Shown: piece after piece, positions 13,550-61,603 of the stretch | Numbering within the stretch: position 1 is the stretch's first letter | Layout: each line of letters opens with the position of its first letter | From: a bacterium | GTDB taxonomy: Bacteria > Electryoneota > Electryoneia > Electryoneales > Electryoneaceae | Direction: 5' to 3' | DNA length: 64,000 bases | Assembly (NCBI GenBank): GCA_963669175.1 | Contig: OY769902.1 | Location: 3,616,001-3,680,000, forward strand | Program-made: the position numbers and the translations under genes | Notes under the pieces: model-generated | Database searches by the model: none | What the model was told of the DNA's origin: nothing | Seen by the model: the letters and a program-made list of their open reading frames with translations, nothing else

Positions 13550-13577
13550 AAAAAGCCGGCCCGAAGGCCGGCTTTTT
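13550..13577 (-). terminator. Intrinsic terminator (symmetric A/T tails) ending the putative ncRNA
   Basis: AAAAAGCCGGC-CCGAAG-GCCGGCTTTTT. Confidence 0.8.
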
Positions 13578-14142
13578 GGAGGTCGGAAAATCGGCGTCGA
13601 GGGGAAACGCCGAAGGCGAACTTGCGTGGGGATCGCCACACTTCGGGAACCGTATCTTTTTCAATGCAATCCCTAGCAAGCAGTGCATGTAAAACTATGG
13701 AAGGCTTCCTGCTTCCAGAGGCGCTTCAGTGCCGTTCTCACAATCAGGGTGGGAAGCCCGTACAAAGTGAAGTATGCCTTGAAACCGTCTTAAAACCGTG
13801 CTTGTAAACCGTGCCAGCAATCAAATCAAGAAACCGTGCCAGTCGTCAGTGCAGGTAACCGTGCTAGTAGTCAAATCTCGAAATCGTAAGTTCTTCAGTG
13901 CATGTTACCGTGCCAGTAGCAGTGCTGGTAGATCGTGCAAGTAAACCGTACGGGAAACCGTGCATGTAGTCCGTACTAAAAGCATGAGAACGACGTGACT
14001 TGTTCTGGACCCGAAATCAAAGAAATCGTGCTATGTATCACCAACCGGGTCGCTGAAACCGTGCTAAGTTGATCGTGCCCTTTTCCCAGCCAACGCTCCA
14101 AGGAAGCCTTCCAAATATTCAAAGATCAATCGCAAGCTCTGC
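13550..14142 (-). ncRNA. Putative ~590-nt sigma54-dependent ncRNA with repeated GCACG motifs (sponge-like)
   Basis: Sigma54 promoter upstream, terminator downstream, two long-range closing helices, 10 exact GCACGR motifs and no credible ORF. Confidence 0.65.
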
Positions 14143-14152
14143 ACATGGTTTA

Positions 14153-14168
14153 TGCAACCATCATGCCA
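14153..14168 (-). promoter_or_regulatory. Sigma54 (-24/-12) promoter
   Basis: Minus strand TGGCATGATGGTTGCA versus consensus TGGCACG-N4-TTGCW, with exact spacing. Confidence 0.75.
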
Positions 14169-14612
14169 AGAAATCATCGACTGGGAGACTGAAAACAGGA
14201 AAGGACAAATTCATTGACAATTAAAGACTTAGATGCCATTCTTTCGTTTATTGACTTTCAGGTCAAGAAAATTAACCATGCATCGTCAGAACAGGCTGTG
14301 CATATTTTGCATCAACTATCAAACTGTTTGCACAACACTGCACAAATAATTTGACAATCAGTGAGTCATTGCACCTGCAATGGTGTTTTCTGAGCTGCGC
14401 GCTTTGCCGCAAGACAAGGCGCATTCCCAAATCATAGCAGGGTATTTTAAAGGAATGGAACGACGTCACGAACGATGCGGTACGCACCCTTCGGGCTTGT
14501 CACGAGGCTGCTGTCTTCCGTGTTTATCTCGTTTAAGTAATCCGTTATATCTGCATCTAATCGTCTTTGCGGCCAACTCGCCCTTACCCCACGATCCATG
14601 TGAATCGGTCCA

Positions 14613-15407
14613 CTAAAACCTGAGTTGCAAAGAAATACCGGGACGGATTCCCATACCTGTTTCGAGCAGAGTAGGCTCAATAACCGTTTGCGTTTCCAGT
14701 TCAGGCGGCGTAAAGAAGGCATCCAGGACATTGACTACCCAGACAGTACCGAGTGCTATACCCACGTAATTCCGCATATGGACGGCGTTTTTATACTCAT
14801 CGTATATCCCGGAAAGGGCGTCTGGATTATGACTGTTGTGGTAATCATCATCCAGACGGTTCACTTCAGACTGTGCTACGCCCAAGCCAACAATCAAGAC
14901 TCCTGTAATACCTATATAGGTCCATCCCCTCGTCTTCTGCCCTTTGTAGAGCTGCCCCAATCCGGGGAAGAACAAGCTACGCCTGGCGCCACCGTTTCGC
15001 AGCGCGCAAGCCATCAGCATTTCGTCTGTAGAATGAAAGCGTTGCTGCCCTAGCGCATTAAAGTCATCACGCGCCTGGTTGAATACTGCAAGGATCTTGG
15101 GCGAGGTTAATGTTGGATCAACCCTCAAGCGTGGATTCAGGCTTAACGCATTAATAAACTGCTCTTTGCCTGCTTCACGGTCCCCCCTGGCAACGGAGAT
15201 ATAGGCCAGGTACCTGTGCAATTCTGCCAGGTCAATCTCTGACAGAGATGAAGACCTGCTTACATGGCGCAGGGCCACAAGCTCAGCTTCATCAAGCATT
15301 CCCTGATCGTAAAGGTTCTTTACTTCATTGAGCGGGTCGATCGATGTTTCCTGTGCAAAAACAGGGACTGCCAACAAAAGGACGATCAACAACCTGTATC
15401 GCATCAT
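14613..15407 (-). CDS. Exported TPR-containing protein with C-terminal DUF5683-like membrane domain
   Basis: Signal peptide, TPR-like helices, RSLFFPGLGQLYKGQ motif and a terminal ...ISLQLRF. Confidence 0.7.
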   Translation of the reverse strand: MMRYRLLIVLLLAVPVFAQETSIDPLNEVKNLYDQGMLDEAELVALRHVSRSSSLSEIDLAELHRYLAYISVARGDREAGKEQFINALSLNPRLRVDPTLTSPKILAVFNQARDDFNALGQQRFHSTDEMLMACALRNGGARRSLFFPGLGQLYKGQKTRGWTYIGITGVLIVGLGVAQSEVNRLDDDYHNSHNPDALSGIYDEYKNAVHMRNYVGIALGTVWVVNVLDAFFTPPELETQTVIEPTLLETGMGIRPGISLQLRF

Positions 15408-15700
15408 CCGTACCTGTATTTAATCCCTTTCCCGCCCACCGGATAAAACCAGTGAACGTATTCCGGCGACGTTACGTGACAAGTACCACATTCAACACAG
15501 TTTTCATGATTAACGATACATTCCCCGGTATTGGGATCTTCTTCGTATACCTTCGCCGGGCAGACATAAGTAATAGGACGTGGATGCCGTGGGTCAGCCT
15601 TGTATTTCTCCTGGTCAACGCGGATATGGCTGGCTTTATCCCAATTGTACTGGTTCAGACCAAGTTTATCTTCGATGGTTACCGGATTTTCTTTACTCAT
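15404..15700 (-). CDS. fixX: Ferredoxin-like protein FixX
   Basis: VCPAKVY, ENCVECGTC, WFYPVGGKGIKYRYG; coupled to fixC. Confidence 0.88.
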   Translation of the reverse strand: MSKENPVTIEDKLGLNQYNWDKASHIRVDQEKYKADPRHPRPITYVCPAKVYEEDPNTGECIVNHENCVECGTCHVTSPEYVHWFYPVGGKGIKYRYG

Positions 15701-17010: not shown

Positions 17011-17240
17011 AAAATCGCCCTCACCGCTGTTTCTATCCGTAAGATCGTTTTTGCGAAACGTACTTCGGGACAGTCCTTTAATTATATACTTTGATCGGGG
17101 ACAGCGTTATATTCTCAGAGTGAACCGTATCGGCAAGCGTGGGAAAACACTAATGTAAGCCACGAGTAATAATCTTTCAAGGAAACTGGAGTCCTGGAAA
17201 TGCTTACGATTCGTGAACATCAACACAGGAAAACTGAAGC

Positions 17241-18458: not shown

Positions 18459-18641
18459 ATTGATAAAGTTCAAAATGATTGGTATTACTGTTTACTTCGT
18501 CATATAGCTGGAGTATCTTTTTTCATCACTGGTTTCAGATGTATTCAGAGAAAGTGTAAAAGTTACCTGTACGATTTCACGCATCCCGCATCCCGGAATG
18601 CATTAGTGCTTCGATTTGATTGCGATTAGTGGGGCCGGCAC

Positions 18642-21776: not shown

Positions 21777-21796
21777 GAAGAAAAAGGTGTAAACGC

Positions 21797-21828
21797 AACA
21801 AACCCTCACCGAATGGTGAGGGTTTGTT
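21797..21828. terminator. Bidirectional terminator hairpin
   Basis: AACAAACCCTCACC-GAAT-GGTGAGGGTTTGTT between a convergent CDS and tRNA. Confidence 0.75.
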
Positions 21829-21832
21829 TGTG

Positions 21833-21904
21833 TGACCCCTAGGGGAATCGAACCCCTGTTGCCGGGATGAAAACCCGAGGTCCTAACCACTAGACGAAGG
21901 GGTC
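21833..21904 (-). tRNA. tRNA-Glu(TTC)
   Basis: GACCCCTTCGTCTAGTGGTTAGGAC...TTTTCAT...GGTTCGATTCCCCTAGGGGTCA cloverleaf. Confidence 0.95.
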
Positions 21905-21968
21905 GTCAACAGCGCGTAAGTATAAGGTATCGGGAAGCGGAATTCAACCCATCCTACTCCTGCCTCCA

Positions 21969-26624: not shown

Positions 26625-26694
26625 GCCGGCGCTCCCGGTTCAAAATGCAATAGAAAGAATAGTTCGCCTGTTATTGGATTGTATCCTGTAATAA

Positions 26695-49183: not shown

Positions 49184-49239
49184 CGGACCAGAAGCATGTA
49201 GCGGTCCATTTGACGCCCAACAAAAGCGAACAACGAGTA

Positions 49240-49875
49240 ATGATGGAACATAAAAGTCTGGCTGATGACCTTCGCGATCTGGCCGTCCAATGCGGAACGG
49301 ATACAGTCAGCCTGGGAGATATCACCAGGATCATGGGTGAACGTGGCTTTGGGATGCTTTTCATCATTCTGTCACTCCCCAGCGCAATGCCAGTCCCGGC
49401 CCCCGGATACAGCACCCCATTCGGCATCCTGATGGTCCTGCTCGGACTCCAGCAACTGGTTGGCAAGTCCAGCCCCTACCTGCCGCAATGGGCGCTCAAT
49501 CGTGAACTCAAATCAAAGACCATGGCTAAAATCTTCAATGCCGGTGGCGCTTTCTTCGACAAGATGGAATACCTGATCAAACCGCGCTTTGGTTGGATTG
49601 GAAGCCGACTCGGGCAATCTGTCATCAGCCTGCTGGTTATCATTATGGCCACCTTGATGATTTTCCCGATTCCGTTGACAAATACCGCTCCGGCCATTGT
49701 AATCTTTATTCTCGGCATCGGGATCCTTGAACGTGATGGGCTGGCGATTGCCTTTGGCGCTGTTGTGGGCTGGCTGGCAGTTCTTCTCTACGGATTTGTT
49801 ATTTATTCCATCATTTACCTTGGCACCAGCCCGGAAGAAGTGAAGGAAATGGTCAAAGGATTCCTGGGAATGTGA
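49240..49875 (+). CDS. ExoD-family exopolysaccharide biosynthesis membrane protein
   Basis: GERGFG, LSLPSAMPVPAPG, IPLTNTAPA and ERDG. Confidence 0.88.
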   Translation: MMEHKSLADDLRDLAVQCGTDTVSLGDITRIMGERGFGMLFIILSLPSAMPVPAPGYSTPFGILMVLLGLQQLVGKSSPYLPQWALNRELKSKTMAKIFNAGGAFFDKMEYLIKPRFGWIGSRLGQSVISLLVIIMATLMIFPIPLTNTAPAIVIFILGIGILERDGLAIAFGAVVGWLAVLLYGFVIYSIIYLGTSPEEVKEMVKGFLGM

Positions 49876-49983
49876 GCAATGTGCGCATAATAAGTGCAGC
49901 ACATGCCAGCAGGCGTGTATATTGTTCACACCTGCTTACCACCTCAACATCATATGTTTATATTTACAAGTACTTAACAAAAC

Positions 49984-49999
49984 TGGCACACGGCTTGTA
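49984..49999 (+). promoter_or_regulatory. Probable sigma54 promoter
   Basis: TGGCACACGGCTTGTA: perfect -24 TGGCAC, exact spacing, TTGT in place of TTGC. Confidence 0.55.
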
Positions 50000-50009
50000 A
50001 CTGTGCATA

Positions 50010-50256
50010 TCAGACCCCCAAGGCAGCCAAACCTTGGTTGTGGAATCAGGCCGACGACTGAAGGATTGGGCTTTCCCACCCCTTCCGAAGCCGAAGTCTT
50101 AACCACCATTCTTTCGGAAGTGGCTTGATTTCCGGGTCTGTTTTTAGAAAGAGGGTTCCCGAAAGGGACTGAACATAGCAGTTGGTGCATCCCCGCACCG
50201 TTTGGCCTCAGCCATTCGCAACACTTGGCCGGTGTTGTAGGCTGGGGCTTCTCTTT
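50010..50256 (+). ncRNA. Putative structured two-domain ncRNA
   Basis: Domain 1 is closed by CAGACCC/GGGTCTG with inner helices; domain 2 is closed by AAAGAG/CTCTTT with three hairpins; start coincides with the sigma54 +1. Confidence 0.55.
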
Positions 50257-50396
50257 GCGACTTAGGTTATAAACAATTACAAGAATCTTCTTCCACACCC
50301 TGATCTCCATACTGCGCACAGCATACGCAGAAGCAGGATTGAATCTGACAGCAGTATGCACTATACTCCAGCACGAAGAATACAATTGGAGATAGA

Positions 50397-51308
50397 GTGA
50401 CCAACGGATACAGCAAAATACCAGTGAACGGCCCCTTCCGTTTGGCAACGGCGCTTAATGTCCTTTTCCGTTATGAACGCCCACGGCTCAATCCAAGGGA
50501 ACCGGCTCGCGCATCCTTTTCCCTGGAAGTCCCTGATGGCGCGGTGGAGGTTACTGTCCGACAACAGCGCCCCGGCGATACACTGGAATTCCTCGTACTT
50601 GGCGACCGTGCTTCACAGGAGACCATCGAGTATGTCAATAAAACACTGATCAGGATGTTCGCGCTGGATGTTGATGCATCTGACTTTTTTGAACGTGTGC
50701 GTGATGATTCACATTTGAAACTGGCCTCTTCCCTGTACCCGGATTTGCGTCCAGTTCGCATGCCAACCCCATTTGAAGCAGCGATAAAACTGATCATCGG
50801 GCATCGGATTTCGCCGGAAACAGCGGTAGCGTTGATACGGAACCTGGTTGAAGTTTGCGGAATTATTCCGTCCGGACGTCCAAACGCCAGACCGGCATTC
50901 CCTGGAAGGGCGACGATTCTTGCCATGCCGGATAAACTCCTGGAGATCACCGGTATCGTAAATGAGAAGATTCAGAAGATTCGCGAGCTGGCCTCTTCAC
51001 AATTCGGTGAAGAAGCTGATATGGAATCGATTTTCGCCGAGAGTGATCCGATGATTGCCAGGAAAAGACTGGAAGATCTCCCGGGCATCGGCAGGCGAAC
51101 AGCCGAGCATATCCTGCTTCGCGCTTACCCTTTCAATGACATGTTGAATGATGACCCGATCCTTCAACGTGCCGTTCAACGGTTCTATCATCTTGCGCAA
51201 ATGCCTGACGAGAAAACCATGAAACGATTTGCTCAGCCTTTTATGCCGTGGCGAAGCTGGTGGATGTTCCTGCTTTATACTGTAAATGAGACCTCGGTAA
51301 TTGTGTGA
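50397..51308 (+). CDS. DNA-3-methyladenine glycosylase II (AlkA family)
   Basis: PFEAAIKLIIG, AFP and HhH motif LEDLPGIGRRTAE; C-terminal PWRS. Confidence 0.85.
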   Translation: MTNGYSKIPVNGPFRLATALNVLFRYERPRLNPREPARASFSLEVPDGAVEVTVRQQRPGDTLEFLVLGDRASQETIEYVNKTLIRMFALDVDASDFFERVRDDSHLKLASSLYPDLRPVRMPTPFEAAIKLIIGHRISPETAVALIRNLVEVCGIIPSGRPNARPAFPGRATILAMPDKLLEITGIVNEKIQKIRELASSQFGEEADMESIFAESDPMIARKRLEDLPGIGRRTAEHILLRAYPFNDMLNDDPILQRAVQRFYHLAQMPDEKTMKRFAQPFMPWRSWWMFLLYTVNETSVIV

Positions 51309-51704
51309 GCCATGGTGATTTTTCGGTTATCGCTTGTTGCTTATAGCGCTTGTGCTTATCTTAGTGAGTTATGTTCCATCTGTCAGATTGTTTCAGAAGC
51401 AGGAATTTCTGAATAACCCTATGATTTCAGGCATATCTGCTTTGTCATATATTATGGTTGATGAATCATGTGGGCTTCATCAGCAGATGTATGACTGAAA
51501 TCAGATGAAAATCTTTGCAAGTTATTGATTTTCAAAAGCAGCAAATCACATTTCATATAATATCAACATGTGGTGCAGGAAGGTTGAAAACGACAAACAA
51601 GATGACGTTACTCAAGCAAACCTGTTTTAATTCCGTTGCCACCCGGTGAAACAGGCCCCGTAAAAGAGTAGCGAAACGGTTTACATAGTTTGAAGGAGAG
51701 TCCC

Positions 51705-53492
51705 ATGAGGCATAAAACGCGACACCTGTACACGTTAGCACTTATTGCGCTGGTGGCAGTATTGGCGATGAGCGGCGCAGTAAATGCATTCTACCAGAGC
51801 CTGCTTCATGAGAATTTTGAGCAGGATCAGGGGCTTTGGCCCTGGGATACGGACAACATAGGTGACCAGGGGTGGATGATTTCCCCCGGCGCCAACACGC
51901 AGCATCCTTACTACACCTGGGCAGTCGAAGAAAGCACGATTTACCACTACATTGGCCCAGATTATTACCGGTCTATCTGGTGCTGTGGTCTTCCCAACAA
52001 CTACCTGCCCGGCCAGGATGATTATCCGCCGAACCAGCTTGCATGGGTAATCTGGGGTCCCTTTGACATCAACAGCCTCGATATGTTCCAGGTTGGTGGC
52101 GTCTTTTACCATTGGGCTGAAACTGAACCCTGGTACAGTGGCGCTGGCGATGCTTTCTGGATGGTCGCGAAGGATGACCCGAACCTGCAACAGCTTGACA
52201 TTACCGAATGGTATATCGGTTACGCGCATGAGACCGGTGTAACGCAACCGCCGCAACAATGGATCCCCATGTCGTTTGACTTCTTCGACCTGGTTACCTG
52301 GGAAGGTGATTCCGTTGCCCTTATGCCCGAAGATGGCGAAACACTGAACAACGTCTATTTCGGATTTGTGTTCTACTCCGATAGCGATGATCTGCGTGGA
52401 CGTGGTGTATTCCTCGACGATATTGATTTTGGTTACGACGATGGTCAGTTTGACTATCAGGTCATGACACCGATGTACTACAAGTATGCAGATTCAGTCC
52501 TTACACAGGCGTATACCATTCACCAGAATGATACGATTGCCATCAAGAACCGTTTTAACGCGCATGGAGCCACACCAGAGATTGCGGCAACACATGTTGT
52601 TTATATCAACAACGATGTCAGGAATCCGGAATCTGAATGGATCCCCCTGGATTCCATGACCGGTCAGTGGATCGCCCATCCCAATGGACGCATCAACAAC
52701 GTGTATTTCGAAGAATACTGGGTACCGGATGATACCGGCTATTGGGGCGTCAAGATCTCGCTTGATGTTGACGATGTTCAGATGGAATCGGATGAGACCA
52801 ATAACATCTTTGTCGATACGATCTACGTAGATGCACCGCAAACAGCGCCTTACATCATATGGCATGACCTGATCGGAACTTCGGAAAACGACACGCTTGT
52901 CGTGGTTGACGTTGGCGAAGTTGATGCTTTAACGATTGATTACACGGCAATTAACTCACCGCCATCCGAGGCGGCAGGGTTATCGTTCCTGTATTGTGAC
53001 AACGATACCAGCACACAAGATGTCATCATGGAATTGTTCGGTATCATCATTGATAACGAACGGCATCAGGTTGAGTGGCACTTGTCAGAGTTGGAAGATT
53101 CCGTGGTCTATCGTCTTTATGCCTTCATGGATGACGGCAGCTTCCTTCCGATTACGGATCAGGCTCCGCAGTACATCATGAAGGTCGAGACCGACGATGT
53201 TGATGATGTGCAGGCATCGACTTTACCGACAGAGTTTGCTATTGAATCCATATACCCGAACCCCTTCAACCCGACAGTTGAAGTAGAGTTTGCCATGCCC
53301 CAGGCTGGCGACATCAAGATTCAGTGGTATTCACTCGAAGGGCGTCTGGTTGATGTACAAACTATTGCAGGCGCGATGCCAGGCTTCCACAAGATTGCCT
53401 GGACACCGCAGAATCTCGCCAGCGGTATGTACCTGATGCGTGCCAGTAGCCCAGCCGGCGAATTGACGGGCAAGGTTCTTTACCTGAAATAA
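51705..53492 (+). CDS. Secreted protein with CARDB-like domain and T9SS type A sorting domain
   Basis: Signal peptide, GVFLDDI, ESDETNN and C-terminal YPNPFNP...YSLEGRLV...SGMYL...KVLYLK. Confidence 0.78.
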   Translation: MRHKTRHLYTLALIALVAVLAMSGAVNAFYQSLLHENFEQDQGLWPWDTDNIGDQGWMISPGANTQHPYYTWAVEESTIYHYIGPDYYRSIWCCGLPNNYLPGQDDYPPNQLAWVIWGPFDINSLDMFQVGGVFYHWAETEPWYSGAGDAFWMVAKDDPNLQQLDITEWYIGYAHETGVTQPPQQWIPMSFDFFDLVTWEGDSVALMPEDGETLNNVYFGFVFYSDSDDLRGRGVFLDDIDFGYDDGQFDYQVMTPMYYKYADSVLTQAYTIHQNDTIAIKNRFNAHGATPEIAATHVVYINNDVRNPESEWIPLDSMTGQWIAHPNGRINNVYFEEYWVPDDTGYWGVKISLDVDDVQMESDETNNIFVDTIYVDAPQTAPYIIWHDLIGTSENDTLVVVDVGEVDALTIDYTAINSPPSEAAGLSFLYCDNDTSTQDVIMELFGIIIDNERHQVEWHLSELEDSVVYRLYAFMDDGSFLPITDQAPQYIMKVETDDVDDVQASTLPTEFAIESIYPNPFNPTVEVEFAMPQAGDIKIQWYSLEGRLVDVQTIAGAMPGFHKIAWTPQNLASGMYLMRASSPAGELTGKVLYLK

Positions 53493-53514
53493 AATGATCC
53501 TGATTGCTTCCCCG

Positions 53515-53550
53515 GCCCCTTTCCGAATTTGGGAAGGGGCTTTTTTTTTT
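53515..53550 (+). terminator. Intrinsic terminator
   Basis: GCCCCTTTCC-GAATTT-GGGAAGGGGC-T10. Confidence 0.85.
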
Positions 53551-53657
53551 GTGCTGTGTCATGTTTATCACTCTCCCATTGTCTCTATTCCGGGTGACCT
53601 ATCTTATCGATGTGCTTATATTCCAAGTTCATCCGAACGAAAACAGGATTGACTCTC

Positions 53658-54683
53658 ATGCATGAAAAACTGGTTGAGCTGGATCAGCATCGAAGTGCTT
53701 TTCTAGACGAGCTTTCCGGCATCTCGGCATTAGATTCGCTTGAACAGCTCCGGGTTAAGTACATAGGTCGAAAAGGACTGATCGCCGGGCTCTTCAAGGA
53801 AGTCGGAAAACTTCCCAATGAGGTAAAAGGACCATTTGGGAAAGCGTTGAATGAGCTGAAAACACTTGCCACAGAACAGATCGAAGCAGCACAACAACGT
53901 CTGGAAGGTGAACAGATACGTACCGAAGTGGATTTGACACTTCCAGCCAGACTGCCTCGAACGGGTTCATATCATCCCCTGGCGCTGGTGGAGCGTGAAG
54001 TTCGCAAAATCTTTCAGCGTATGGGTTTTACGGTTGAACGTGGTCCGGAAATCGAAGATGCCTGGCACTTGTTTGACGCTTTAAATACACCGGAGTGGCA
54101 TCCTGCCCGTGAACCTACCGATACGTTTTATCTGGAAGAAGGCGGCATTCTGCGTACGGAAACCAGCCCGATCCAGATCCGTGTCATGGAACGGGACAAG
54201 CCACCGATCCGCATCATTGCGCCGGGAAAAACGTATAGAAACGACAAACCAGATGCCACCCATTCCCCCATGTTCAGCCAGGTTGAAGGGTTATACGTGG
54301 ACAAAGGTGTGACCATGGCGGACCTGAAAGGAACAGTACTGGCATTTTACCGTGCTTTCTTCGGATCGTCTGTGAAAACACGCTTCCGTCCGCATTTCTT
54401 CCCCTTTACCGAACCATCGGCAGAAGTAGACATCACCTGCGCTTTTTGCGGCGGGAATGGCTGCCGTGTTTGTAAAGGCTCAGGCTGGATTGAGATGGGC
54501 GGTTGCGGCATGGTGGATCCCAATGTGTTTGACGCTGTCGGGATTGATTCAGAGGTCTACACCGGCTGGGCCTTCGGGCTTGGCATCGAACGGCTTTCCA
54601 TGCTGGCATACGATATAAACGACATCAGGCTTTTCCACGAAAACGATTACAGGTTCCTGGGACAATTTGGAGGCAGGCGATGA
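53658..54683 (+). CDS. pheS: Phenylalanine-tRNA ligase alpha subunit
   Basis: HPAREPTDTFY, LRTETSP, DATHSPMFSQVEG, FPFTEPSAE and AFGLGIERL. Confidence 0.97.
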   Translation: MHEKLVELDQHRSAFLDELSGISALDSLEQLRVKYIGRKGLIAGLFKEVGKLPNEVKGPFGKALNELKTLATEQIEAAQQRLEGEQIRTEVDLTLPARLPRTGSYHPLALVEREVRKIFQRMGFTVERGPEIEDAWHLFDALNTPEWHPAREPTDTFYLEEGGILRTETSPIQIRVMERDKPPIRIIAPGKTYRNDKPDATHSPMFSQVEGLYVDKGVTMADLKGTVLAFYRAFFGSSVKTRFRPHFFPFTEPSAEVDITCAFCGGNGCRVCKGSGWIEMGGCGMVDPNVFDAVGIDSEVYTGWAFGLGIERLSMLAYDINDIRLFHENDYRFLGQFGGRR

Positions 54684-57109
54684 AGGTATCATATAACTGG
54701 CTGAAGGAATTCGTCGATTTCGACGCAACTCCCGAGCAAATCGCCGAGATCCTCACTTTCCAGGCGTTTGAGCTGGAAAGCATGGAAAAAGTCACCCGCC
54801 ATGTGACAGGTGTCGTCGTTGGTAAAATCCTTGAAGTCACCCCACATCCGAACGCGGACAAGCTCAAACTGACCAAAGTCGATATTGGAACGGAAGTTCT
54901 TGATATCGTTTGTGGCGCTCCGAATTGCCGTGCCGGGATTAAAGCACCAGTGGCAAAGCCGGGAACACAACTGGGCGATATTACCGTAACGCCGCGAAAA
55001 CTGCGTGGCGAACCATCTAACGGTATCATCCTGTCAGAACGTGAGATGAACATCAGCGGCGATCATGGCGGTATCCTGATTCTGGATGATTCCCTCGAAA
55101 TCGGCACAGAGATGTCCACCCTGGTTCCACCGGAAGACACCATCCTCGACTTCGAGATCACGGTCAATCGTCCGGATGCGATGAGTCATCTTGGTATCGC
55201 GCGTGAACTGGCAGCGCATTTCAACCTGCCACTGACCATGCCGCCGACAGATGTCACAGAAATCGATCTGCCCGCTTCGGACTGGATTAAAGTGGATATC
55301 GAGGATCCGGAGTATGGTCCACGCTATGTGGCACGAGCGGCGCAGCATGTCAAAGTCGCTCCTTCCCCGCTCTGGATGAAAGCCCGCTTGTGGGGATTGG
55401 GACAGCGTCCGATCAATAACGTCGTTGATATAACCAACTATGTCCTGCTCGAGCTGGGACATCCGTTGCACGCCTTCAATTATCACCTGGTCAAGGATGG
55501 TCACATCATTGTCCGCCTTGCCAATGAAGGTGAGAAGTTCACCACGCTGGATGATCAGGAACGTACGATGAAGACCACGGACCTGATGATTGCCGACCCT
55601 GAGAAGGGTGTCGCTGTTGCCGGAGTCATGGGTGGCGCGAACAGCGAAGTGGATGAATCGACAAGTGACGTCCTGATCGAAGCAGCTTATTTCAATCCTG
55701 TCAGTGTCCGAAAGACTTCGAAACACCTGGGCCTGATTACGGAAGCCTCCAAGCGCTTCGAACGTGGCCAGGATCCGGCAATGGCGCCTGTTGCGGCACA
55801 ACGCTGCGCGCATATGCTGCAACAATTGACCGATGCCGAGATCCTGAGAGGCGCGGTTGATGCGTATCCGCAGGAAATTCTGCCATGGACGGTTACGCTT
55901 CGCCCCTCACGCGTCAATCATGTTCTTGGAGTCGATATCAAGCGTGAAGACGTGCTTGACAGTCTGCACAGATTGAACCTAGAGGTTGCTGAAGCGGGCG
56001 AAGACAGTCTGACCGTCACGATTCCAACTTTCCGCCCGGATCTGACTCGTGAGATTGACCTCGTTGAAGAAGTTGCCCGTATTGTGGGCTATTACAAGGT
56101 GCCGGATGCGATCCATTCCAGTATTGTTCTTGAGCGCAAGGATACCGGTGTTGAAAGCTTGCTGGAAGCGGCGTCTGATACGATGGTTGGCCTTGGATAC
56201 AACCAGGCTGTCACCATTGCCATGATCCAGGACAGCGATCAGACAGCATTCCAGCCATCACTCCATCCGTTCCATATTAATCATGCTCTTAGCAAGGAGA
56301 TGAACAGCTTCCGTGCATCTTTGATCCCTGCTTTGCTTCGAGTTGCGGAATACAACTTGAACCGTGGTGTCGAAGATATTCGTTTATTCGAAATTGGGCA
56401 GACCCAGGTAGCAGAAAAAGTGGCTGGTGGCTGGTTCAGTGAATATAGTGACGCCCGTGAACATCTGGCATTTATTTCAATTGGATCCTCTCGTTCGGCT
56501 TCCTTTGACGAGAAATCACCAAGAGAATATGATATTTTTGATCTTAAAGGGGACGTAACTGGACTTTTGTCAGGTATTTGTCTTGACAATTTCCCGGTTC
56601 TTTCTTATGATACGGTTGAGCATCTTGACCTTGCTTTATCCATGTTTGATGCGCAGGGGAATTTGCTTTTGAGGGCTGGTCGGTTAGCGCGAGAAACTGC
56701 AGAAGCATTCGGAATAGATAAACCGGTATTTGTGTGCGAAGTAGATTTGTTTGCACTGGTACCACTCGAGGGTCACGAGGGGATTCTCAGACCGGGTGCC
56801 GCGAGTCGTTTTCATTCCTTCTCTCGCTTTCCGACAAATGAGCGCGATTTAGCCTTTATTGCCCCCAAAACAGTTGCAGCCGGTACTATTGAGCAGATCA
56901 TTCGGGAAAAAGCCGGAGCATTGCTGGAAAGTGTCAGACTGTTTGATTTGTACGAAGGAAAACCGTTGGCTGATGATACACGGAGCCTGGCATTCAGGCT
57001 GGTATTCAGGGCTGACGATAGAACATTGACAGATGATGATGTCAATCCACTGGTAGCAAAAGTTATTTCTGCCGTGGAAAGTTTGCCGCAAGTAACATTG
57101 CGGTCATAA
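54680..57109 (+). CDS. pheT: Phenylalanine-tRNA ligase beta subunit
   Basis: MKVSYNWLKE, HPNADKL, VCGAPN, NRPDAMS, RPDLTREIDLVEEV and a C-terminal FDX-ACB domain. Confidence 0.97.
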   Translation: MKVSYNWLKEFVDFDATPEQIAEILTFQAFELESMEKVTRHVTGVVVGKILEVTPHPNADKLKLTKVDIGTEVLDIVCGAPNCRAGIKAPVAKPGTQLGDITVTPRKLRGEPSNGIILSEREMNISGDHGGILILDDSLEIGTEMSTLVPPEDTILDFEITVNRPDAMSHLGIARELAAHFNLPLTMPPTDVTEIDLPASDWIKVDIEDPEYGPRYVARAAQHVKVAPSPLWMKARLWGLGQRPINNVVDITNYVLLELGHPLHAFNYHLVKDGHIIVRLANEGEKFTTLDDQERTMKTTDLMIADPEKGVAVAGVMGGANSEVDESTSDVLIEAAYFNPVSVRKTSKHLGLITEASKRFERGQDPAMAPVAAQRCAHMLQQLTDAEILRGAVDAYPQEILPWTVTLRPSRVNHVLGVDIKREDVLDSLHRLNLEVAEAGEDSLTVTIPTFRPDLTREIDLVEEVARIVGYYKVPDAIHSSIVLERKDTGVESLLEAASDTMVGLGYNQAVTIAMIQDSDQTAFQPSLHPFHINHALSKEMNSFRASLIPALLRVAEYNLNRGVEDIRLFEIGQTQVAEKVAGGWFSEYSDAREHLAFISIGSSRSASFDEKSPREYDIFDLKGDVTGLLSGICLDNFPVLSYDTVEHLDLALSMFDAQGNLLLRAGRLARETAEAFGIDKPVFVCEVDLFALVPLEGHEGILRPGAASRFHSFSRFPTNERDLAFIAPKTVAAGTIEQIIREKAGALLESVRLFDLYEGKPLADDTRSLAFRLVFRADDRTLTDDDVNPLVAKVISAVESLPQVTLRS

Positions 57110-57153
57110 TTGTTATTAGTATTTGATTCCGATTCCAACGAGTGAGACTAGTG

Positions 57154-57411
57154 ATGCAGATCGAAGATTTACAACAACTAGAAGCAAAAATCGCTGGCGT
57201 GCTTGAGAAAATGGAAACACTCAAGCAGGAAAACGGCGATTTGCAAAGACGGCTGGACGACCTCCAGTCGCGATACGATGACAAAGCAGCCAGGCTTGAA
57301 GAAGTATCCCTAGAGCTTGAAAAAGCCCGATCCAATGCAAGGGACTTCGAAAAGGAGGAGAAGATCCGCACGAAGGTGTCGAGTCTTCTGGAGAAGCTCG
57401 ATAGCTTCTAA
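57154..57411 (+). CDS. zapB: Cell division protein ZapB-like coiled coil
   Basis: LQQLEAKI..LKQEN..IRTKVSSLLEKL; pheT-zapB-zapA synteny. Confidence 0.75.
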   Translation: MQIEDLQQLEAKIAGVLEKMETLKQENGDLQRRLDDLQSRYDDKAARLEEVSLELEKARSNARDFEKEEKIRTKVSSLLEKLDSF

Positions 57412-57490
57412 GCTACGTTGCAGTGTTGGTTCTTAAGGAGCGATTTTGATAAAGTAACGGCTACATTACACTTCAGGATACGGACGGTCC

Positions 57491-57799
57491 ATGAACGAGA
57501 AAAACCGGGTGGTACAGGTCGACATATTTGGGCAAGTTTATTCCATCCGGGCCAGCGTGCGTGACGAGGAGTATATCCAGTCCATAGCCCGGTATATCGA
57601 CGGCAAGATGCGGAAAATTGACAAGACGATGAAACCGAATTCCGCACAGAAAGTAGCCATTTTAGCTGCTTTGAATGTTGCTGACGAACTACATACGCTC
57701 AAGCGGAAATACCAGGAACAATCGGACCGGCTGGCGAAGTATAAGGAGAAAATCCAGACATTTTCTGACGTTCTGGACAAGAATCTGATCCAGAAATAG
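57491..57799 (+). CDS. zapA: Cell division protein ZapA
   Basis: VDIFGQVYSIR, YIDGKM and VAILAALNVADE. Confidence 0.92.
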   Translation: MNEKNRVVQVDIFGQVYSIRASVRDEEYIQSIARYIDGKMRKIDKTMKPNSAQKVAILAALNVADELHTLKRKYQEQSDRLAKYKEKIQTFSDVLDKNLIQK

Positions 57800-57816
57800 C
57801 CGTAAAAAAGTTGCTA

Positions 57817-58002
57817 GAAAGCCCTGCACCTCACGCAGGTTACAAAAGAAGAACCAACACTTTAGAAAAGGGAGTTCGACTTCGGTGGTGGCTGGCATGC
57901 CTCCCTGCCTCGCAGGCTAGAGGAAGTCAAATACTACTGGGCGGACACCCACCGTGTTGTACACGGTTCTCTCTTCTTTGCCTGTGGGGGTGTTGGGTTT
58001 TT
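57817..58002 (+). ncRNA. ssrS: 6S RNA
   Basis: ~185-nt rod (GCCCTGCACCTCACGCAGG pairs with CCTGTGGGGGTGTTGGG) with a central bubble; zapA-ssrS-rny synteny. Confidence 0.85.
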
Positions 58003-58032
58003 TATATACATAAAGGATAGGAGCTTAACTCC

Positions 58033-59601
58033 ATGTTAGGATACATCATCGCCGGGATCGTCGGCCTGCTGCTGGGCGTCGCGGTGGGAGCTGTTGTCGG
58101 CATTAAGCTGAAAACAGCCGAAGACAAGAAGAAGAAACTGACCGCTCAGCAGGAAGCGGATCAGATCCTGGAGATCGCCAAAAAAGAGGCTGATTCGCTG
58201 AAACGCGAAAAACTCCTGGAAGCCAGGGACGAAGCTATCGCCCTGAAACGTGAACAAGACAAGCAATACGATAAAAAACTTGATGAACTGCGATCAGAGC
58301 AGAAAAAATTGCACGATCGTGAAGTGGCGCTCGATCGTCGTTTTGAGAAAAACCGGCAGTTGGAAAAAGAACTGAAAGATAAAGATCGTGAAATAAAAAG
58401 GTTAATGCAGTCCAACCAGGACAAACAGGCGTTTCTCGATGATGCCGTAACCAAGCAGAAAGAGCTGTTGGAACGTACCGCCCAGATGACTCGCGAAGAG
58501 GCACTGGAGCAACTCAAGGGCACCCTGATCGACAAGGCGCGTCGCCAGACCGCGGAAACGATCAAGGAAATGCGCGATAAGGCTCGCCTGGAAGCCAACC
58601 GTGAAGCTCGTGAGATCATCATTCAGGCAATTCAACGTAGCGCAGCGGATCATGCGGCAGAGAACACCGTCACCGTCATCAACCTGCCGAACGATGATGT
58701 CAAGGGACGGATAATCGGACGTGAAGGCCGCAACATTCGCGCGTTGGAAGCGGCTACCGGCGTTGATATCATCGTTGACGACACACCGGAAGCAGTTATT
58801 CTTTCAAGTTTTGACCCGTACCGCCGTGAAATCAGCCGTATCGCACTGGAGAAGCTGATTACGGACGGTCGCATCCATCCTGCACGTATCGAGGAAGTGG
58901 TTGCCAAGGCTCAGAAAGAACTGGATGAACGTGTGCTCGAACTGGGTAAAAACGCCCTGATCGAAGCCAAGGTACACGGCCTCCATCCTGAATTGATAAA
59001 GTTGCTGGGACGTTTGAACTACCGTACCAGCTACGGCCAGAATGTCCTGAAGCATGTTACTGAAGTAGCGCACCTGTCCGGTCTGATGGCCATTGAGCTT
59101 GGTCTTGACGCCAAGATCGCACGCCGCGCCGGTCTGTTGCATGACATCGGCAAGGCGGTTGACCGGGAAAGCGAAGGCACCCACGTCAAGCTCGGCCTTG
59201 AACTGGCAAAGAAATACGGCGAAGGTGGCGTGGTTCAGAACGCGATCATATCGCACCATGAAGACGCACCACCGGATAACCCGATTTCCGTGCTGGTGCA
59301 AGCCGCAGACGCGATCAGCAGTTCACGTCCGGGCGCACGCCGTGAATCCTTGGAAGGCTATATCCAGCGTATGCACGGGTTGGAAGAAATCGCGTCCAAC
59401 TTCGAGGGCATCAACAAGGTTTTCGCGATCCAGGCAGGACGCGAGATCCGCTGCATCGTAGAGCATGAGAAAATCACCGATGCCCTGGCCGATGCGCTGT
59501 CCCACGACATCGCGGAAAGGATCGAGCATGAACTTGAATACCCGGGCCAGATCAAGGTTACGGTGATCCGTGAGTATCGTGCCGTGGATTATGCAAAGTA
59601 G
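58033..59601 (+). CDS. rny: Ribonuclease Y
   Basis: TM anchor, coiled coil, KH motif [15 protein letters not shown] motif GLLHDIGK and [12 protein letters not shown]. Confidence 0.97.
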
Positions 59602-59634
59602 GCTTTACCTCTAGAGATTGAACATTCCCCCCCC

Positions 59635-59656
59635 CCCGCTTCGGCGGGTTTTTTTT
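59635..59656 (+). terminator. Intrinsic terminator after rny
   Basis: CCCGC-TTCG-GCGGG-T8. Confidence 0.85.
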
Positions 59657-59867
59657 ATACTATCCCATTGATAAATATTTTACTTAAAGAATCAAATTAC
59701 TCGAAACTCATATACTCAAACATTTTTGAGTTGAGTATAATTTCTATATTACTAAAGCTTGAGAATATTGCCAGTGACTCTAGAGTTGAAGATAATTAGC
59801 TGTCTCTATATTGACATTTGAAACTACATTTAGTATCATTTTTGTCAGTAAGAAAAAAGCGGAGACT

Positions 59868-60200
59868 ATGAGCAAAATCCAGAAGACTTTTGAACAGCTT
59901 ACGGGAAAAGGTAGAAAACTACCTAACGAAATCGAGTTTAAAGTTCTTAAAGATGTGCTCGAGGAAGCCGGATGTACAGTAACACACTTTCCAACTGGTT
60001 CACACTGGCGTGTAACCCATCCAGATTTATTTAAACACCCAGATTTTAGTAGATCAGGCCATTTTGAGATTCCAGTTCACGGTGGAAGACAGGGTGGTCA
60101 ACATGTCAGAAGAGCAAGGATCTACATACAGAAAGTTGCGAAAGTCGTGGAGTTCTTAAGGGAATACGAGGAGATAAAACGTGGAAAAGCAAGATCTTAA
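59868..60200 (+). CDS. HicA-like toxin
   Basis: Basic 110-aa protein with FKVLKDVLEEAGC..TGSHWRVTHP..IPVH..IYIQKV (HicA GSH motif); upstream of a HicB-like gene. Confidence 0.75.
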   Translation: MSKIQKTFEQLTGKGRKLPNEIEFKVLKDVLEEAGCTVTHFPTGSHWRVTHPDLFKHPDFSRSGHFEIPVHGGRQGGQHVRRARIYIQKVAKVVEFLREYEEIKRGKARS

Positions 60201-60765
60201 GGCACTTATCGATAGTCACTATCCTATTACACTTATCAAAACAGAAGATGGTATTGAAGGATGGTATGAGGATTTTGGACGTGGTACAACTGGTACCATT
60301 GCTGATACATTGGAAGAGGTTGTATTCGATCTAGAGAGTATTTTGATGAGTACTCTTGAGTATATGGTTGAACAAAGTCTCGAAATTCCTCAACCACATA
60401 GCGAAATAATTGATAACTTCAGTGGCCAGTTTATTGTCAGAGTCCCAAGAAGTTTGCATGCTGACCTTTCTAAAAACGCTAAAAGAGAAGGAGTTAGTTT
60501 GAATCTCTATGTAAATAATATTTTATCTGAACGCAATATGCTCAGTCAAGTCAATAATAAAATTAACAATTTACAATTAGGACACGATAAAATATTTGAT
60601 AAATTTCAATCCATTATACCTGAGCCAAAGAAAGACACCTATACATTTGATTATAATCCTACCCCTAGTCAATCAACAGCTTTGATATTGGAAATGAATA
60701 CACCATCGGTAAAAGGAGAAACCCAACCATGGTCAAGTAATAATTCAACCGCAAATTCGAATTAG
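60181..60765 (+). CDS. HicB-family antitoxin with C-terminal extension (candidate chaperone-addiction tail)
   Basis: N-terminal partial RNase H-like fold, IPQP, RHH motif FSGQFIVRVPRSLHADL...EGVSLN, then ~70 extra residues. Confidence 0.82.
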   Translation: MEKQDLKALIDSHYPITLIKTEDGIEGWYEDFGRGTTGTIADTLEEVVFDLESILMSTLEYMVEQSLEIPQPHSEIIDNFSGQFIVRVPRSLHADLSKNAKREGVSLNLYVNNILSERNMLSQVNNKINNLQLGHDKIFDKFQSIIPEPKKDTYTFDYNPTPSQSTALILEMNTPSVKGETQPWSSNNSTANSN

Positions 60766-60791
60766 AGTAAAGAAACTACTTGGAGGTAGCA

Positions 60792-61274
60792 GTGAGGTCA
60801 AAGGAAAATACGATTAGCTTTGAAGAAGCGAAAAACTGCCTCTCATACGAAGAATACAACCGTTTACTTTCGGAGTGTGAACTGCAGCAGATAGAACTGG
60901 TCAGTCTTTCTTCAAAGAAATTTGGATCATATGAAAATAAGTCCTTTAAATTGGAACCGAACTTAACACATAAATACTTTAAGACAAAGAAAAATCAATC
61001 CTATAAATTTGAGACTAATTTTTCTTTACATTCTTATGAGGCGAGAGATAATTCTAAGGGAAGTGATTCTAAGCGTGATAAACTAGTAGAGATACAGTGT
61101 AAGTATAATATCTATCTTACTACAGATAATGATTTACCTGAGGAATTTTTAGTAATTTACATTAACCTAACTTTAGGTTTAGTAATATGGCCTTTTATCA
61201 GAGAAATGGTTGTCGATATATCGCAAAAAATGATGCTACCACCTATCATTCTTCCTATGATAAGAGTAGGATAA
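60792..61274 (+). CDS. SecB-like chaperone (third component of a TAC system)
   Basis: GGAGG RBS then GTG; ELQQIELVSL...VEIQCKYNI...IWPFIREMVVDISQKMMLPPIILP resembles the SecB C-terminal (F/W)PY.RE...(G/M).PP..LP motif. Confidence 0.75.
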   Translation: MRSKENTISFEEAKNCLSYEEYNRLLSECELQQIELVSLSSKKFGSYENKSFKLEPNLTHKYFKTKKNQSYKFETNFSLHSYEARDNSKGSDSKRDKLVEIQCKYNIYLTTDNDLPEEFLVIYINLTLGLVIWPFIREMVVDISQKMMLPPIILPMIRVG

Positions 61275-61356
61275 CACAAAATCCCTTAAGATATTGATGT
61301 ATTGGTATTTCTCAAGACACCTAGAAATGGGTGTCTTTTCTCTTGCCATGAAGGAT

Positions 61357-61577
61357 AAAAAAAATCGGACGACCGAAGAGCCGTCCGAACAAGAGTATTT
61401 TCGAAAGTCAGTGGGAAGAGGCCACCTATCAACCACTGTCTTTCACGAAACCAGGGGAGGGCCTGGCTTCGCCATCCGGTTTCACCCGCTCGGGTGGCGA
61501 AACGTGGTGCGCCCTAGGACGCCGCATCCCCGCACCTAAACGTCTGTCGAAGCGCTCACACGTTTCGTCGCCCTTGC
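61357..61577 (-). ncRNA. Putative ~220-nt sigma54-dependent multibranch ncRNA with terminator
   Basis: GCAAGGG/CUCUUGU closing stem, four internal hairpins and terminator UCGGACGG..UCGUCCGA-U8. Confidence 0.6.
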
Positions 61578-61587
61578 TACACCTTTT

Positions 61588-61603
61588 TGCAAGCGACAGA
61601 CCA
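61588..61603 (-). promoter_or_regulatory. Probable sigma54 promoter
   Basis: Minus strand TGGTCTGTCGCTTGCA: GG-N10-GC spacing with perfect TTGCA; -24 partly degenerate. Confidence 0.55.

Follow-up and report, generated by a model that had tools for sequence, protein, structure and literature searches.

We analysed a window of 64,000 nt, the whole stretch of DNA considered here (assembly GCA_963669175.1, contig OY769902.1, positions 3,616,001-3,680,000 of the forward strand), from a member of the Electryoneaceae (Electryoneota). Three gene-free loci of this window encode what look like new regulatory RNAs, named RNA1, RNA2 and RNA3 (Table 1). RNA2 precedes a gene with weak AlkA matches, and RNA3 is convergent with its neighbour gene in genome G000. 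The window also holds a 6S RNA; none of the three RNAs matches RF00013, and an Rfam search returned no family above threshold for any of them. The comparison set comprised 16 genomes of one family, from an uncultivated and little-studied candidate phylum of the FCB group. These genomes are kin, and homologue counts are thus not independent. Promoters, structures, repeats and complementarity are conserved among them, with a known reach that is narrow (one sub-clade of the family, 5-8 of the 16 genomes). None of the three RNAs has a second copy in the genome.

Table 1. Positions in the window of the three RNA loci, their predicted promoters and associated features
Feature	Position	Strand	Remarks
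RNA1 predicted sigma-54 promoter CTTGGCATGATGGTTGCATA	14151-14170	-	PWM 17.0 bits; predicted +1 near 14142
RNA1 promoter core match TGGCATGATGGTTGCA	14168-14153	-	
RNA1	14142 to 13550	-	~590 nt
RNA1 5' clamp arm GGAAGGCUUCC	14102-14112	-	identical in 6/6 homologues; exact complement of 3' arm
RNA1 repeat interior	13719-14101	-	14 GCAC + 8 ACGGUU, all sense, mostly 12-13 nt apart
RNA1 invariant 20-mer CUGGAAGCAGGAAGCCUUCC	13699-13718	-	contains 3' clamp arm
RNA1 3' domain	13550-13698	-	conserved blocks AAGCACUGCUU, AUACGGUU, CGGCGUU..CCCUCGACGCCG; three-genus alignment
RNA1 final terminator hairpin + U-run	13555-13574	-	terminator at +596 from promoter
RNA2 predicted sigma-54 promoter ACTGGCACACGGCTTGTAAC	49982-50001	+	PWM 17.8 bits; predicted +1 near 50010
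RNA2 promoter core match TGGCACACGGCTTGTA	49984-49999	+	
RNA2	50010 to 50256	+	
RNA2 5' domain, closed by CAGACCC/GGGUCUG	50012-50140	+	consensus fold with compensatory changes
RNA2 invariant ACCCUUCCGAAGCC in 5' domain	about 50079-50092	+	alignment
RNA2 hairpin GGUGC-AUCCCC-GCACC	50184-50199	+	stem covaries in G006: GGCGC/GCGCC
RNA2 segment GCAUCCCCGCACC, 13 nt	50187-50199	+	exact complement of RNA3 core
RNA2 terminator hairpin + U-tract	50204-50256	+	helix conserved; about 140-160 nt before AlkA-like gene
AlkA-like gene (HhH-GPD superfamily)	50397-51308	+	weak AlkA matches
6S RNA	57818-58002		Rfam RF00013, 64.4 bits
RNA3 predicted sigma-54 promoter ACTGGTCTGTCGCTTGCAAA	61586-61605	-	PWM 13.1 bits; predicted +1 near 61577
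RNA3 promoter core match CTGGTCTGTCGCTTGC	61604-61589	-	
RNA3, candidate ~220-nt structured sRNA	61577 to 61357	-	covariance model
RNA3 conserved core GGUGCGGGGAUGCGGCGUC	61518-61536	-	GCGGGGAUGC in 8/8, GCGGGGAUGCGGC in 7/8 homologues
RNA3 intrinsic terminator	61365-61388	-	10-bp stem then U8; helix covaries (helix 9)

Predicted sigma-54 promoters and the stretches behind them

The genome encodes RpoN (Sigma54_DBD match, 184.9 bits) and about 22 enhancer-binding proteins with strong AAA+ domains (22 Sigma54_activat matches above 180 bits), both of which an earlier note on this DNA had proposed to look for. Palindromes of the type TGTGC(A/G)CA, seen by eye ~90-170 nt upstream of the promoters, are putative activator sites. 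We scored promoters with a PWM trained on this same genome. All three sites agree with TGGCAC-N5-TTGCW (GG at -24, GC at -12, fixed spacing), save that RNA2 of G000 and G003 has TTGT. They are the three best intergenic sites of the window, and each is followed by an ORF-poor stretch and then a terminator, which bears out the earlier note's observation that such sites precede non-coding segments here. Its further claim, that transcription is predicted to start no more than ~3 nt from a closing helix, holds for RNA2 and RNA3 but not for RNA1, where the conserved clamp comes ~30 nt after the predicted +1. Two sites within ORFs of the window score 13.2 bits, versus 13.1 for the RNA3 promoter, an unremarkable value that 244 sites equal or exceed genome-wide. 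The plain consensus is found below chance in the window (19 matches with at most two mismatches vs 36 +/- 6.4 in shuffles), and hence the three sites are convincing only because of the PWM and of conservation.

At the scale of the genome, sites of at least 16 bits are enriched 12-fold per base in intergenic regions (44 intergenic vs 20 coding). They do not generally announce RNA genes. Among the 81 intergenic sites of at least 14 bits, 49 lie within 300 nt of a confident gene, a further 24 have an ORF of 60 aa or longer, and only 8 have neither, such that the scan suggested by the earlier note finds sigma-54 sites mostly before genes and not before ORF-free regions. The RNA1 promoter reads TGGCA(C/T)-N5-TTGC around a variable spacer in all six homologues with a complete 5' side. 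GG-N10-GC is kept at RNA2 in the four full copies and in two shortened leaders (G006, G008), with the promoter present in the relatives G003, G009 and G010, and at RNA3 in 8/8 homologues at constant distance; in both the spacer drifts. When RNA4 is included, a fourth conserved candidate for a sigma-54-driven sRNA located elsewhere in the genome, outside the window, GG and TTGC occur at fixed spacing and distance in all 25 promoter copies read, while spacers and flanks have diverged. This pattern suggests that the three RNAs are transcribed and depend on sigma-54.

The stretches behind the promoters contain no sense ORF longer than 48 aa (the longest have 48 and 41 aa). ORFs overlapping the RNA loci have low coding scores and no Pfam match, and every alignment contains indels whose length is not a multiple of three. 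By BLASTP, an ORF antisense to the RNA1 3' domain does match between G000 and G001 (39% over 79 aa). Sampled RNA1 words were found in four metatranscriptome runs from four studies, with shares of 0.21-0.43 that represent word matches only. Contigs of four public RNA runs, compared with positions 49900-61700, left RNA2 and RNA3 uncovered, as they did even the 6S RNA.

Repeat architecture of RNA1

RNA1 is closed in its MFE fold by an invariant clamp of 11 bp, and the 20-mer that contains the 3' arm is exact in G000, G001, G003, G006, G007 and L149. The interior between the arms diverges between homologues and ranges from 331 to 609 nt, yet retains its motif: each carries 14-20 GCAC(G/U)GUU repeats on one strand, spaced 11-13 nt. 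Taken together, the six interiors (2604 nt) contain 94 GCAC in sense and none in antisense, at spacings of 11-13 nt and multiples thereof. TRF reports periods of 11-12, 24 and 50. The RNA1 interior is also the genome's top ACGGTT cluster on its strand (9 per 500 nt vs 0.2 expected). Its predicted fold is less stable than that of shuffles (z = +2.0), and the motif is not preferentially unpaired in it.

Many same-strand copies of a motif that is kept while the surrounding sequence changes are a feature of protein sponges, and RNA1 has it. This build suggests that RNA1 acts as a sponge. It would be a ~590-nt decoy, whose clamp presents a weakly structured array of phased sites, and the array would most likely titrate a putative oligomeric RNA-binding regulator. 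A search of the genome for known partners detected no CsrA, Hfq, ProQ or RRM_1, a point against this reading.

RNA3 and RNA2, a probable leader

The covariance model finds RNA3 in 8 of the 16 family genomes. Covariation is strong, with compensatory changes on both sides in 36 of 62 pairs, and the share of paired cells is 90.2%, compared with 74.5% for shuffles and about 40% for slid controls, the pair counts being taken from an alignment that had been fitted to the model. The fold itself is stable (z = -3.05). Neither the RNA3 core nor the RNA1 clamp varies, and covariation can therefore test neither of them. RNA3 has the features of a trans-acting sRNA: a promoter and terminator of its own, no tie to one gene, a conserved seed and complementary sites. 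We propose that it is a structured sRNA acting in trans, whose G-rich core GCGGGGAUGCGGC would pair with C-rich GCAUCCCCGC sites.

RNA2, whose whole-RNA fold is also stable (z = -3.96), lies directly upstream of the AlkA-like gene and on its strand in all four full copies and in the shortened ones of G006 and G008. The orthologue follows it in G003 (51% identity), G009 and G010, while genes on the other side differ between genomes. Because RNA2 is tied to this one downstream gene wherever it is found, it is probably a cis leader, structured and with a putative sigma-54 dependence. Fifteen family genomes carry the gene, and 7 of them lack such a leader; what remains in G004 is a sigma-54-like site with a degenerate hairpin.

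The complementarity between RNA2 and RNA3 extends over 13 nt in G000, 13 nt in G003 and 12 nt in G006, and was reached in 0/1000 shuffles in each case. G006 shows a compensatory double change from A-U to G-C in the complementary segments. Changes in G009 and G010 yield G-U pairs, and the match of G010 contains one G-U. RNA3 is also present in G001, G004, G007 and G008, where the matching RNA2 hairpin was not found; within G004, leader and RNA3 mismatch at two central positions. Conversely, G009 has RNA2, and RNA3 was not detected there. The conserved complementarity argues for pairing of the two RNAs, in which one target site of RNA3 would be the RNA2 hairpin loop just before the terminator. 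The genome contains 16 copies of GCATCCCCGC, 14 of them outside the RNA2 and RNA3 loci, and 4 of these 14 are located between -28 and -53 relative to a gene start (~0.26 expected, by estimate). These may be further RNA3 sites, and the few large genes that they precede include type IX secretion cargo genes.

Alternative readings and known systems

RNA1 could sponge a small RNA, or mRNAs carrying AACCGUGC, by base pairing instead of titrating a protein. The one-stranded repeats and their predicted poor structure would suit this, as would the genome search for partners, which detected none of four global RNA-binding protein families (CsrA, Hfq, ProQ, RRM_1). We nevertheless regard it as unlikely, given that 5' UTRs are enriched for neither the motif nor its complement (AACCGTG was seen 32 times vs 49.8 expected), that no sRNA candidate is prominent among the intergenic occurrences listed, and that the complementarity of RNA2, RNA3 and RNA4 to RNA1 is not above chance. 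If the repeats acted as DNA, as an iteron- or centromere-like array or as -24 decoys, transcription would be incidental. Many repeats of G000 and G001 indeed read GGCACGG, which is -24-like, and each clamp arm is near-palindromic. The arms are, however, complementary to one another (centre G vs C) and not identical, none of the 94 motifs lies on the opposite strand, a phasing of 12-13 bp is off the DNA helical repeat, most G003 repeats lack the GG, and the array sits between a conserved promoter and a conserved terminator, all of which make this explanation quite improbable.

Somewhat more room is left for RNA2 as a free-standing trans sRNA or a ligand-sensing riboswitch and not a leader targeted by RNA3, a reading we hold to be doubtful. 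Its strong terminator, 110-160 nt ahead of the gene, the invariant sequence in its structured 5' domain and a sigma-70-like site between terminator and AlkA-like gene agree with it, whereas its occurrence only upstream of the orthologue does not. Either domain can be lost, as in G006 and G008, and this speaks against a single fixed aptamer. Lastly, the promoter-like sites could be due to chance or serve a different sigma factor, with the conserved blocks being, for example, small proteins or remnants of mobile elements. Besides the low consensus count, one may cite an IS-type transposase pair ~780 nt beyond RNA1 and two other apparent orphan sigma-54 sites of the genome, which precede genes for small secreted proteins. 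The fixed GG and TTGC among diverged flanks, the non-triplet indels, the covariation of RNA3 and the single copy of each RNA weigh so heavily on the other side that we give this very little credence.

The earlier note had proposed one family of RNAs linked by a weak shared motif. The motifs it quoted lie where it had placed them, but a 7-mer common to RNA1-RNA3 arises in 265/2000 shuffles and an RNA1-RNA2 10-mer in 193/2000, and the shared motif is absent from RNA1 of G003, L026 and L049 and from RNA2 of G003. At chance level and not conserved, it gives no reason to treat the RNAs as one sequence family. The associated idea of a network of a sponge and pairing RNAs survives in part: the build of RNA1, the RNA2-RNA3 complementarity and RNA4 fit it, while RNA2 is probably a cis leader. 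On balance, we consider it probable that the loci are three separate sigma-54-driven non-coding units, RNA1 a decoy, RNA3 a trans sRNA and RNA2 the leader of the AlkA-like gene. More tentatively, RNA1 may represent a new class of sigma-54 sponge, a clamp-closed array of GCACGGUU titrating a novel oligomeric RNA-binding global regulator, within an RpoN network that includes RNA3, its targets and RNA4. The array is phased 12-13 nt, and in that network RNA3 would target type IX secretion cargo mRNAs as well as the RNA2 leader. To our knowledge, post-transcriptional control is almost unknown in FCB-group candidate phyla. All of this is drawn from sequence comparison, and it offers a direct handle, RNA pull-down with the conserved RNA1 repeats, for finding a new RNA-binding regulator, as well as a testable candidate sRNA-leader interaction in RNA3 and RNA2. 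Comparing -24/-12 promoters across relatives can likewise reveal RNA genes that ORF-based annotation overlooks.

CsrB, RsmY and RsmZ carry GGA motifs in hairpin loops and have CsrA as partner. RNA1 resembles them in its many copies of one short motif and in the presumed titration, and differs in the motif itself, which is not preferentially unpaired, and in a genome where CsrA was not found; with no Rfam match either, we rejected it as a CsrB/Rsm sponge. CrcZ and CrcY of Pseudomonas are several-hundred-nt RNAs with an RpoN promoter, reported to sequester a global RNA-binding regulator through repeated single-stranded motifs (PMC5113210, PMC4063720). RNA1 is likewise several hundred nt long, with a sigma-54 promoter (here predicted) and a repeated motif. 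CrcZ motifs are A-rich and its partner is Hfq/Crc, whereas RNA1 has GCAC(G/U)GUU, phased by 12-13 nt and closed by the 11-bp clamp; this motif, the failure to find Hfq in the genome and the lack of an Rfam match led us to discard a CrcZ-type Hfq sponge. Qrr sRNAs of Vibrio and GlmY of enterobacteria depend on sigma-54, and Qrr base-pairs through a conserved seed. GlmY is described as acting as a decoy (PMC4152352, PMC7073468). The small RNAs reported here share with Qrr and GlmY a promoter (predicted sigma-54) and a terminator of their own, and differ in showing no sequence or Rfam relation, in coming from another phylum and in that no Hfq- or RapZ-type partner was identified; the G-rich seed of RNA3 is set within a multi-helix RNA of ~220 nt. 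Finally, RNA2 is similar to sRNA-targeted 5' leaders in being long and structured, with a terminator-adjacent hairpin that matches a trans sRNA; unlike in those leaders, the effect on termination or translation is putative, and both partners, RNA2 and RNA3, appear to be driven by sigma-54.

Sigma-54 sites and the non-coding status of the three loci

Comparison among related genomes indicates that RNA1, RNA2 and RNA3, the three segments that follow -24/-12 elements in the window (see table), are real, conserved non-coding RNAs that belong to new families and probably depend on sigma-54. The three sites are present at the positions where the earlier note had placed them, and the machinery that they call for is encoded in the source genome G000 (5.45 Mb in a single contig, 50% G+C; the window is G000:C1:3616001-3680000). 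We found rpoN and, for enhancer-binding proteins, 29 Sigma54_activat matches, of which 22 score over 180 bits.

A plain consensus scan of the window gave 19 matches at up to two mismatches, below the 36 ± 6.4 obtained in shuffles. We also used a 20-nt position weight matrix, trained iteratively on the intergenic matches of G000 after crude gene calling, with the sites of RNA1-3 possibly among the training sites. At 16 bits or more it finds 44 sites in intergenic DNA (16% of the genome) versus 20 in coding DNA. The sites of RNA2 (17.8 bits), RNA1 (17.0) and RNA3 (13.1) are the top three intergenic matches of the window, and the numbers of sites scoring at least as well genome-wide are 26, 42 and 244, respectively. 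The RNA3 site is therefore unremarkable by its score and becomes convincing only through its conservation. The genome-wide scan did not bear out a general link between such sites and ORF-free regions. Among 81 intergenic sites of at least 14 bits, 49 have a confidently called gene within 300 nt; for another 24, an ORF of 60 aa or longer begins inside that distance, and only eight have neither. Protein genes are thus the main sigma-54 targets here, and a window with three non-coding loci is unusual, not typical, for this genome.

Some orphan sites were rejected as promoters of RNA genes. Those at genome positions 2216762 and 2270136 (18.5 and 19.6 bits) precede genes for small secreted proteins of 149 and 119 aa, each with a GGAGG ribosome-binding site, that the crude gene caller had dropped; a codon-usage filter discards both. 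A further one lacks the GG and is followed by a tRNA. By eye only, each of the three promoters has palindromes of the TGTGC(A/G)CA type some 90-170 nt before it, which could be shared enhancer sites.

An antisense ORF over the 3' domain of RNA1 gives a BLASTP match between G000 and its relative G001, which counts against non-coding status; nucleotide conservation alone would also yield such a match. The ORFs overlapping the loci have no Pfam match, and the two that are long enough to be scored have coding scores of 0.001 and -0.124 (long genes: 0.187 ± 0.058). The longest sense ORFs have 48 and 41 aa, and the homologue alignments include indels whose lengths are no multiple of three. We therefore reject hidden coding. 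Rfam identifies four tRNAs and one 6S RNA in the window and no family at threshold on the three loci or on three further loci outside it; its weak matches fall mostly on terminators. The weak motif said to be shared by the three RNAs occurs at chance level in shuffles and lacks conservation among homologues, leaving a single sequence family unsupported.

Coordinates of the features (window positions unless marked as genome positions of G000)
Feature	Position	Strand	Description
IS-type transposase, two ORFs (HTH_32, DDE_3)	11705-12774	-	~780 nt beyond RNA1 terminator
ORF overlapping RNA1 locus	13343-13807	+	no Pfam match
RNA1	14142-13550	-	~590-nt repeat RNA
Palindromes	14290-14340, 49868-49896, 61700-61740		upstream of the three promoters
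ORF overlapping RNA2 locus	49936-50448	-	no Pfam match
RNA2	50010-50256	+	
AlkA-like gene	50397-51308	+	downstream of RNA2
6S RNA (RF00013)	57818-58002	+	64.4 bits, gathering score 46.4; between RNA2 and RNA3 loci, apart from the finding
HicB-family (antitoxin-like) protein	60181-60765	+	beside unannotated small ORFs, just before RNA3 locus
ORF overlapping RNA3 locus	61294-61539	+	no Pfam match
RNA3	61577-61357	-	~220 nt
29-nt tandem array	genome ~530470-530640	+	at least six copies
GCATCCCCGC 5' sites (L152-L155)	genome 1318748, 1526042, 1528676, 2098398		before four genes of 743-810 aa
RNA4 (L137)	genome 3978105-3978265	+	19.4-bit sigma-54 site, then ~140-nt terminator-ended sRNA candidate
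UUAGC-repeat locus (L138)	genome 5000477-5000830	+	18.2-bit sigma-54 site
51-nt tandem array	genome 5393880-5394530	+	~12 copies

The repeat RNA, RNA1

DNA and pattern searches retrieved RNA1 in five of the 16 genomes of the family (G000, G001, G003, G006 and G007) and in none of 63 other genomes of the phylum; one further full-length homologue lies on a metagenome contig (L149). Each of the six copies whose 5' side is complete has the promoter, TGGCA[CT]-N5-TTGC, 41-50 nt before the invariant GGAAGGCUUCC. A second invariant element, CUGGAAGCAGGAAGCCUUCC, lies 331-609 nt beyond this 5' arm. It ends in 11 nt that are exactly complementary to the arm, so that the two would form a clamp around the repeats; downstream of the clamp come a 3' domain, also conserved, and a terminator. 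The interior between the arms diverges freely, yet the words GCAC(G/U)G and ACGGUU are kept. On the sense strand, the six interiors (2604 nt) carry 94 GCAC, with about 10 expected by chance, and 71 ACGG; the opposite strand carries neither GCAC nor ACGGTT. GCAC spacing is mostly 11-13 nt or multiples of it, and TRF gives periods of 11-12 and 50 for the G000 copy and of 24 and 48 for that of G003. Nowhere else in G000 is ACGGTT as dense on that strand as at the RNA1 locus; the one cluster that compares with it is a 51-nt tandem array with no relation to RNA1.

The build of RNA1 is, on its sequence, that of a titrating RNA, with GCACGGUU as the candidate protein-recognition motif. The clamped interior is predicted to fold less stably than shuffles (-115.7 versus -127.4 ± 5.8 kcal/mol, z = +2.0), and in the predicted fold the motifs are no more unpaired than the rest of the interior. 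The 5' UTRs of the genome show no enrichment of the motif or of its complement. Searches of the genome for CsrA, Hfq, RRM_1 and ProQ as possible partners found none of them.

RNA1 follows a fixC/fixX-like operon in four of the five genomes, G003 being the exception. On the other side, the IS-type transposase beyond the RNA1 terminator could account for the loss of synteny there. Looser matches were discarded: those of an RNA1 20-mer at three mismatches are coding DNA (according to the one locus read fully) or lack repeats, and 35 of 39 18-mer matches in genome contigs and three of six 20-mer matches in metagenomes are chance.

A probable leader, RNA2, and a structured small RNA, RNA3

Full copies of RNA2 occur in four genomes (G000, G003, G009 and G010), each 110-160 nt upstream of one orthologous gene, which encodes a distant AlkA-like HhH-GPD protein and is present in 15 of the 16 family genomes; genes on the other side vary. 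Upstream of this gene, G008 has the sigma-54 promoter but, of RNA2 itself, just the 5' domain; G006 has a 20.6-bit promoter followed by the C-rich hairpin and terminator alone, G004 has a degenerate version, and seven family genomes have nothing of the kind. RNA2 has a folding z of -3.96 and compensatory changes. In our reading it is more likely a leader under sigma-54 control than a free sRNA.

RNA3 was retrieved in four copies by BLAST and, with a covariance model built on five copies, in eight of the 16 family genomes (G000, G001, G003, G004, G006, G007, G008 and G010). All eight copies have a GG-N10-GC promoter at equal distance upstream. In the model-fitted alignment 90.2% of cells are paired, versus 74.5% in shuffles and 38-45% with slid partners, and in 36 of the 62 pairs both partners change; these figures are somewhat inflated by the fit to the model, and the genomes compared are kin. 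The core GCGGGGAUGCGGC, within a small never-varying hairpin, is invariant but for one change in G004. RNA3 is convergent with its downstream neighbour and, in G000 and G003, divergent from a sugar dehydratase gene. Of the weak matches elsewhere in the phylum, the three that were read (G034, G040, G078) proved to be terminators only; further weak matches fall in G021, G027, G061 and G063 (R1 model) and in G043 (R2 model). Two-mismatch matches of an RNA3 19-mer in other families (G018, G037, G066, G076) are chance.

The RNA2 loop-and-stem GCAUCCCCGCACC is the exact reverse complement of RNA3 GGUGCGGGGAUGC. Full-length RNAduplex was uninformative, because whole molecules were paired with their internal structure ignored, and was replaced by the longest Watson-Crick stretch: 13 nt in G000, 13 nt in G003 and 12 nt in G006, reached in 0 of 1000 shuffles each. 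Both RNAs of G006 differ from those of G000 at one position, turning an A-U into a G-C pair, and the changes in RNA2 of G009 and G010 would give G-U pairs (7 + G-U + 5 in G010). Against the link, G009 has no detected RNA3, RNA3 occurs in genomes lacking the hairpin, and the pair is mismatched in G004.

The complement of the RNA3 core, GCATCCCCGC, occurs 16 times in G000 (10.4 expected). Besides the RNA2 and RNA3 loci, four of 14 occurrences lie 28-53 nt upstream of gene starts, against a chance estimate of about 0.26. Three of these genes encode type IX cargo proteins with type IX secretion sorting domains, and the four candidate-target 5' UTRs carry GCAUCCCCGC. For one candidate target, the BNR/type IX cargo protein, a search of five relatives gave no orthologue at E ≤ 1e-40. 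These putative target sites are a lead, not a regulon.

Transcripts, further RNAs and known systems

Over 49900-61700, four metatranscriptome runs (X1-X4) matched only conserved protein genes, in pieces of 30-60 nt at 90-95% likeness; RNA2, RNA3 and even the 6S RNA had no coverage. Words sampled from RNA1 were present in four runs of four studies, with shares of 0.21-0.43 by word matching only.

A fourth candidate outside the window, RNA4, favours the view that this clade has a few RNAs driven by sigma-54. It has a CAUGAG..CUCAUG hairpin followed by a C-run and terminator, its core is kept in five relatives (G001, G003, G006, G007, G010), and the promoter is seen in the four copies whose upstream sequence was captured. 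Its complementarity to RNA3 (8 nt, GCAUCCCC) was reached in 119 of 500 shuffles and is not above chance.

Other repeats were observed in the genome. At L138, the site is followed by five UUAGC words spaced by about 10 nt and by several CUNAAG-loop hairpins, and no sense ORF that begins within 300 nt exceeds 6 aa; such hairpins also lie downstream of a site at genome position 510437. The 51-nt array, between two cytochrome-like genes, has the hairpin GCGCACACGGUUUUCGUGCGUG in each unit and is not CRISPR, as it lacks spacers. The 29-nt array shares GTCAGGTCTTG with it and has a weak sigma-54-like site upstream.

The earlier note had proposed a network of a sponge plus pairing RNAs. The one-stranded repeats of RNA1 and the RNA2-RNA3 complementarity make this reading plausible, and the part that made the RNAs a shared-motif family is not supported. 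Type IX sorting domains suggest that the genome belongs to the FCB group, as does a relative recorded under the name Candidatus Electryonea clarkiae, which has the same RNA1 locus as G003 without any difference. One paper, whose main text makes no mention of sigma, RpoN or non-coding, places that name in Electryoneota (=AABM5-125-24), a candidate phylum within the FCB superphylum (PMC9324843). Our literature search retrieved no report joining AABM5-125-24 with sRNA, nor RpoN-dependent sRNA with Bacteroidetes. As a kind, sigma-54-driven sponge and decoy RNAs are already known from published accounts, for example CrcZ and GlmY.
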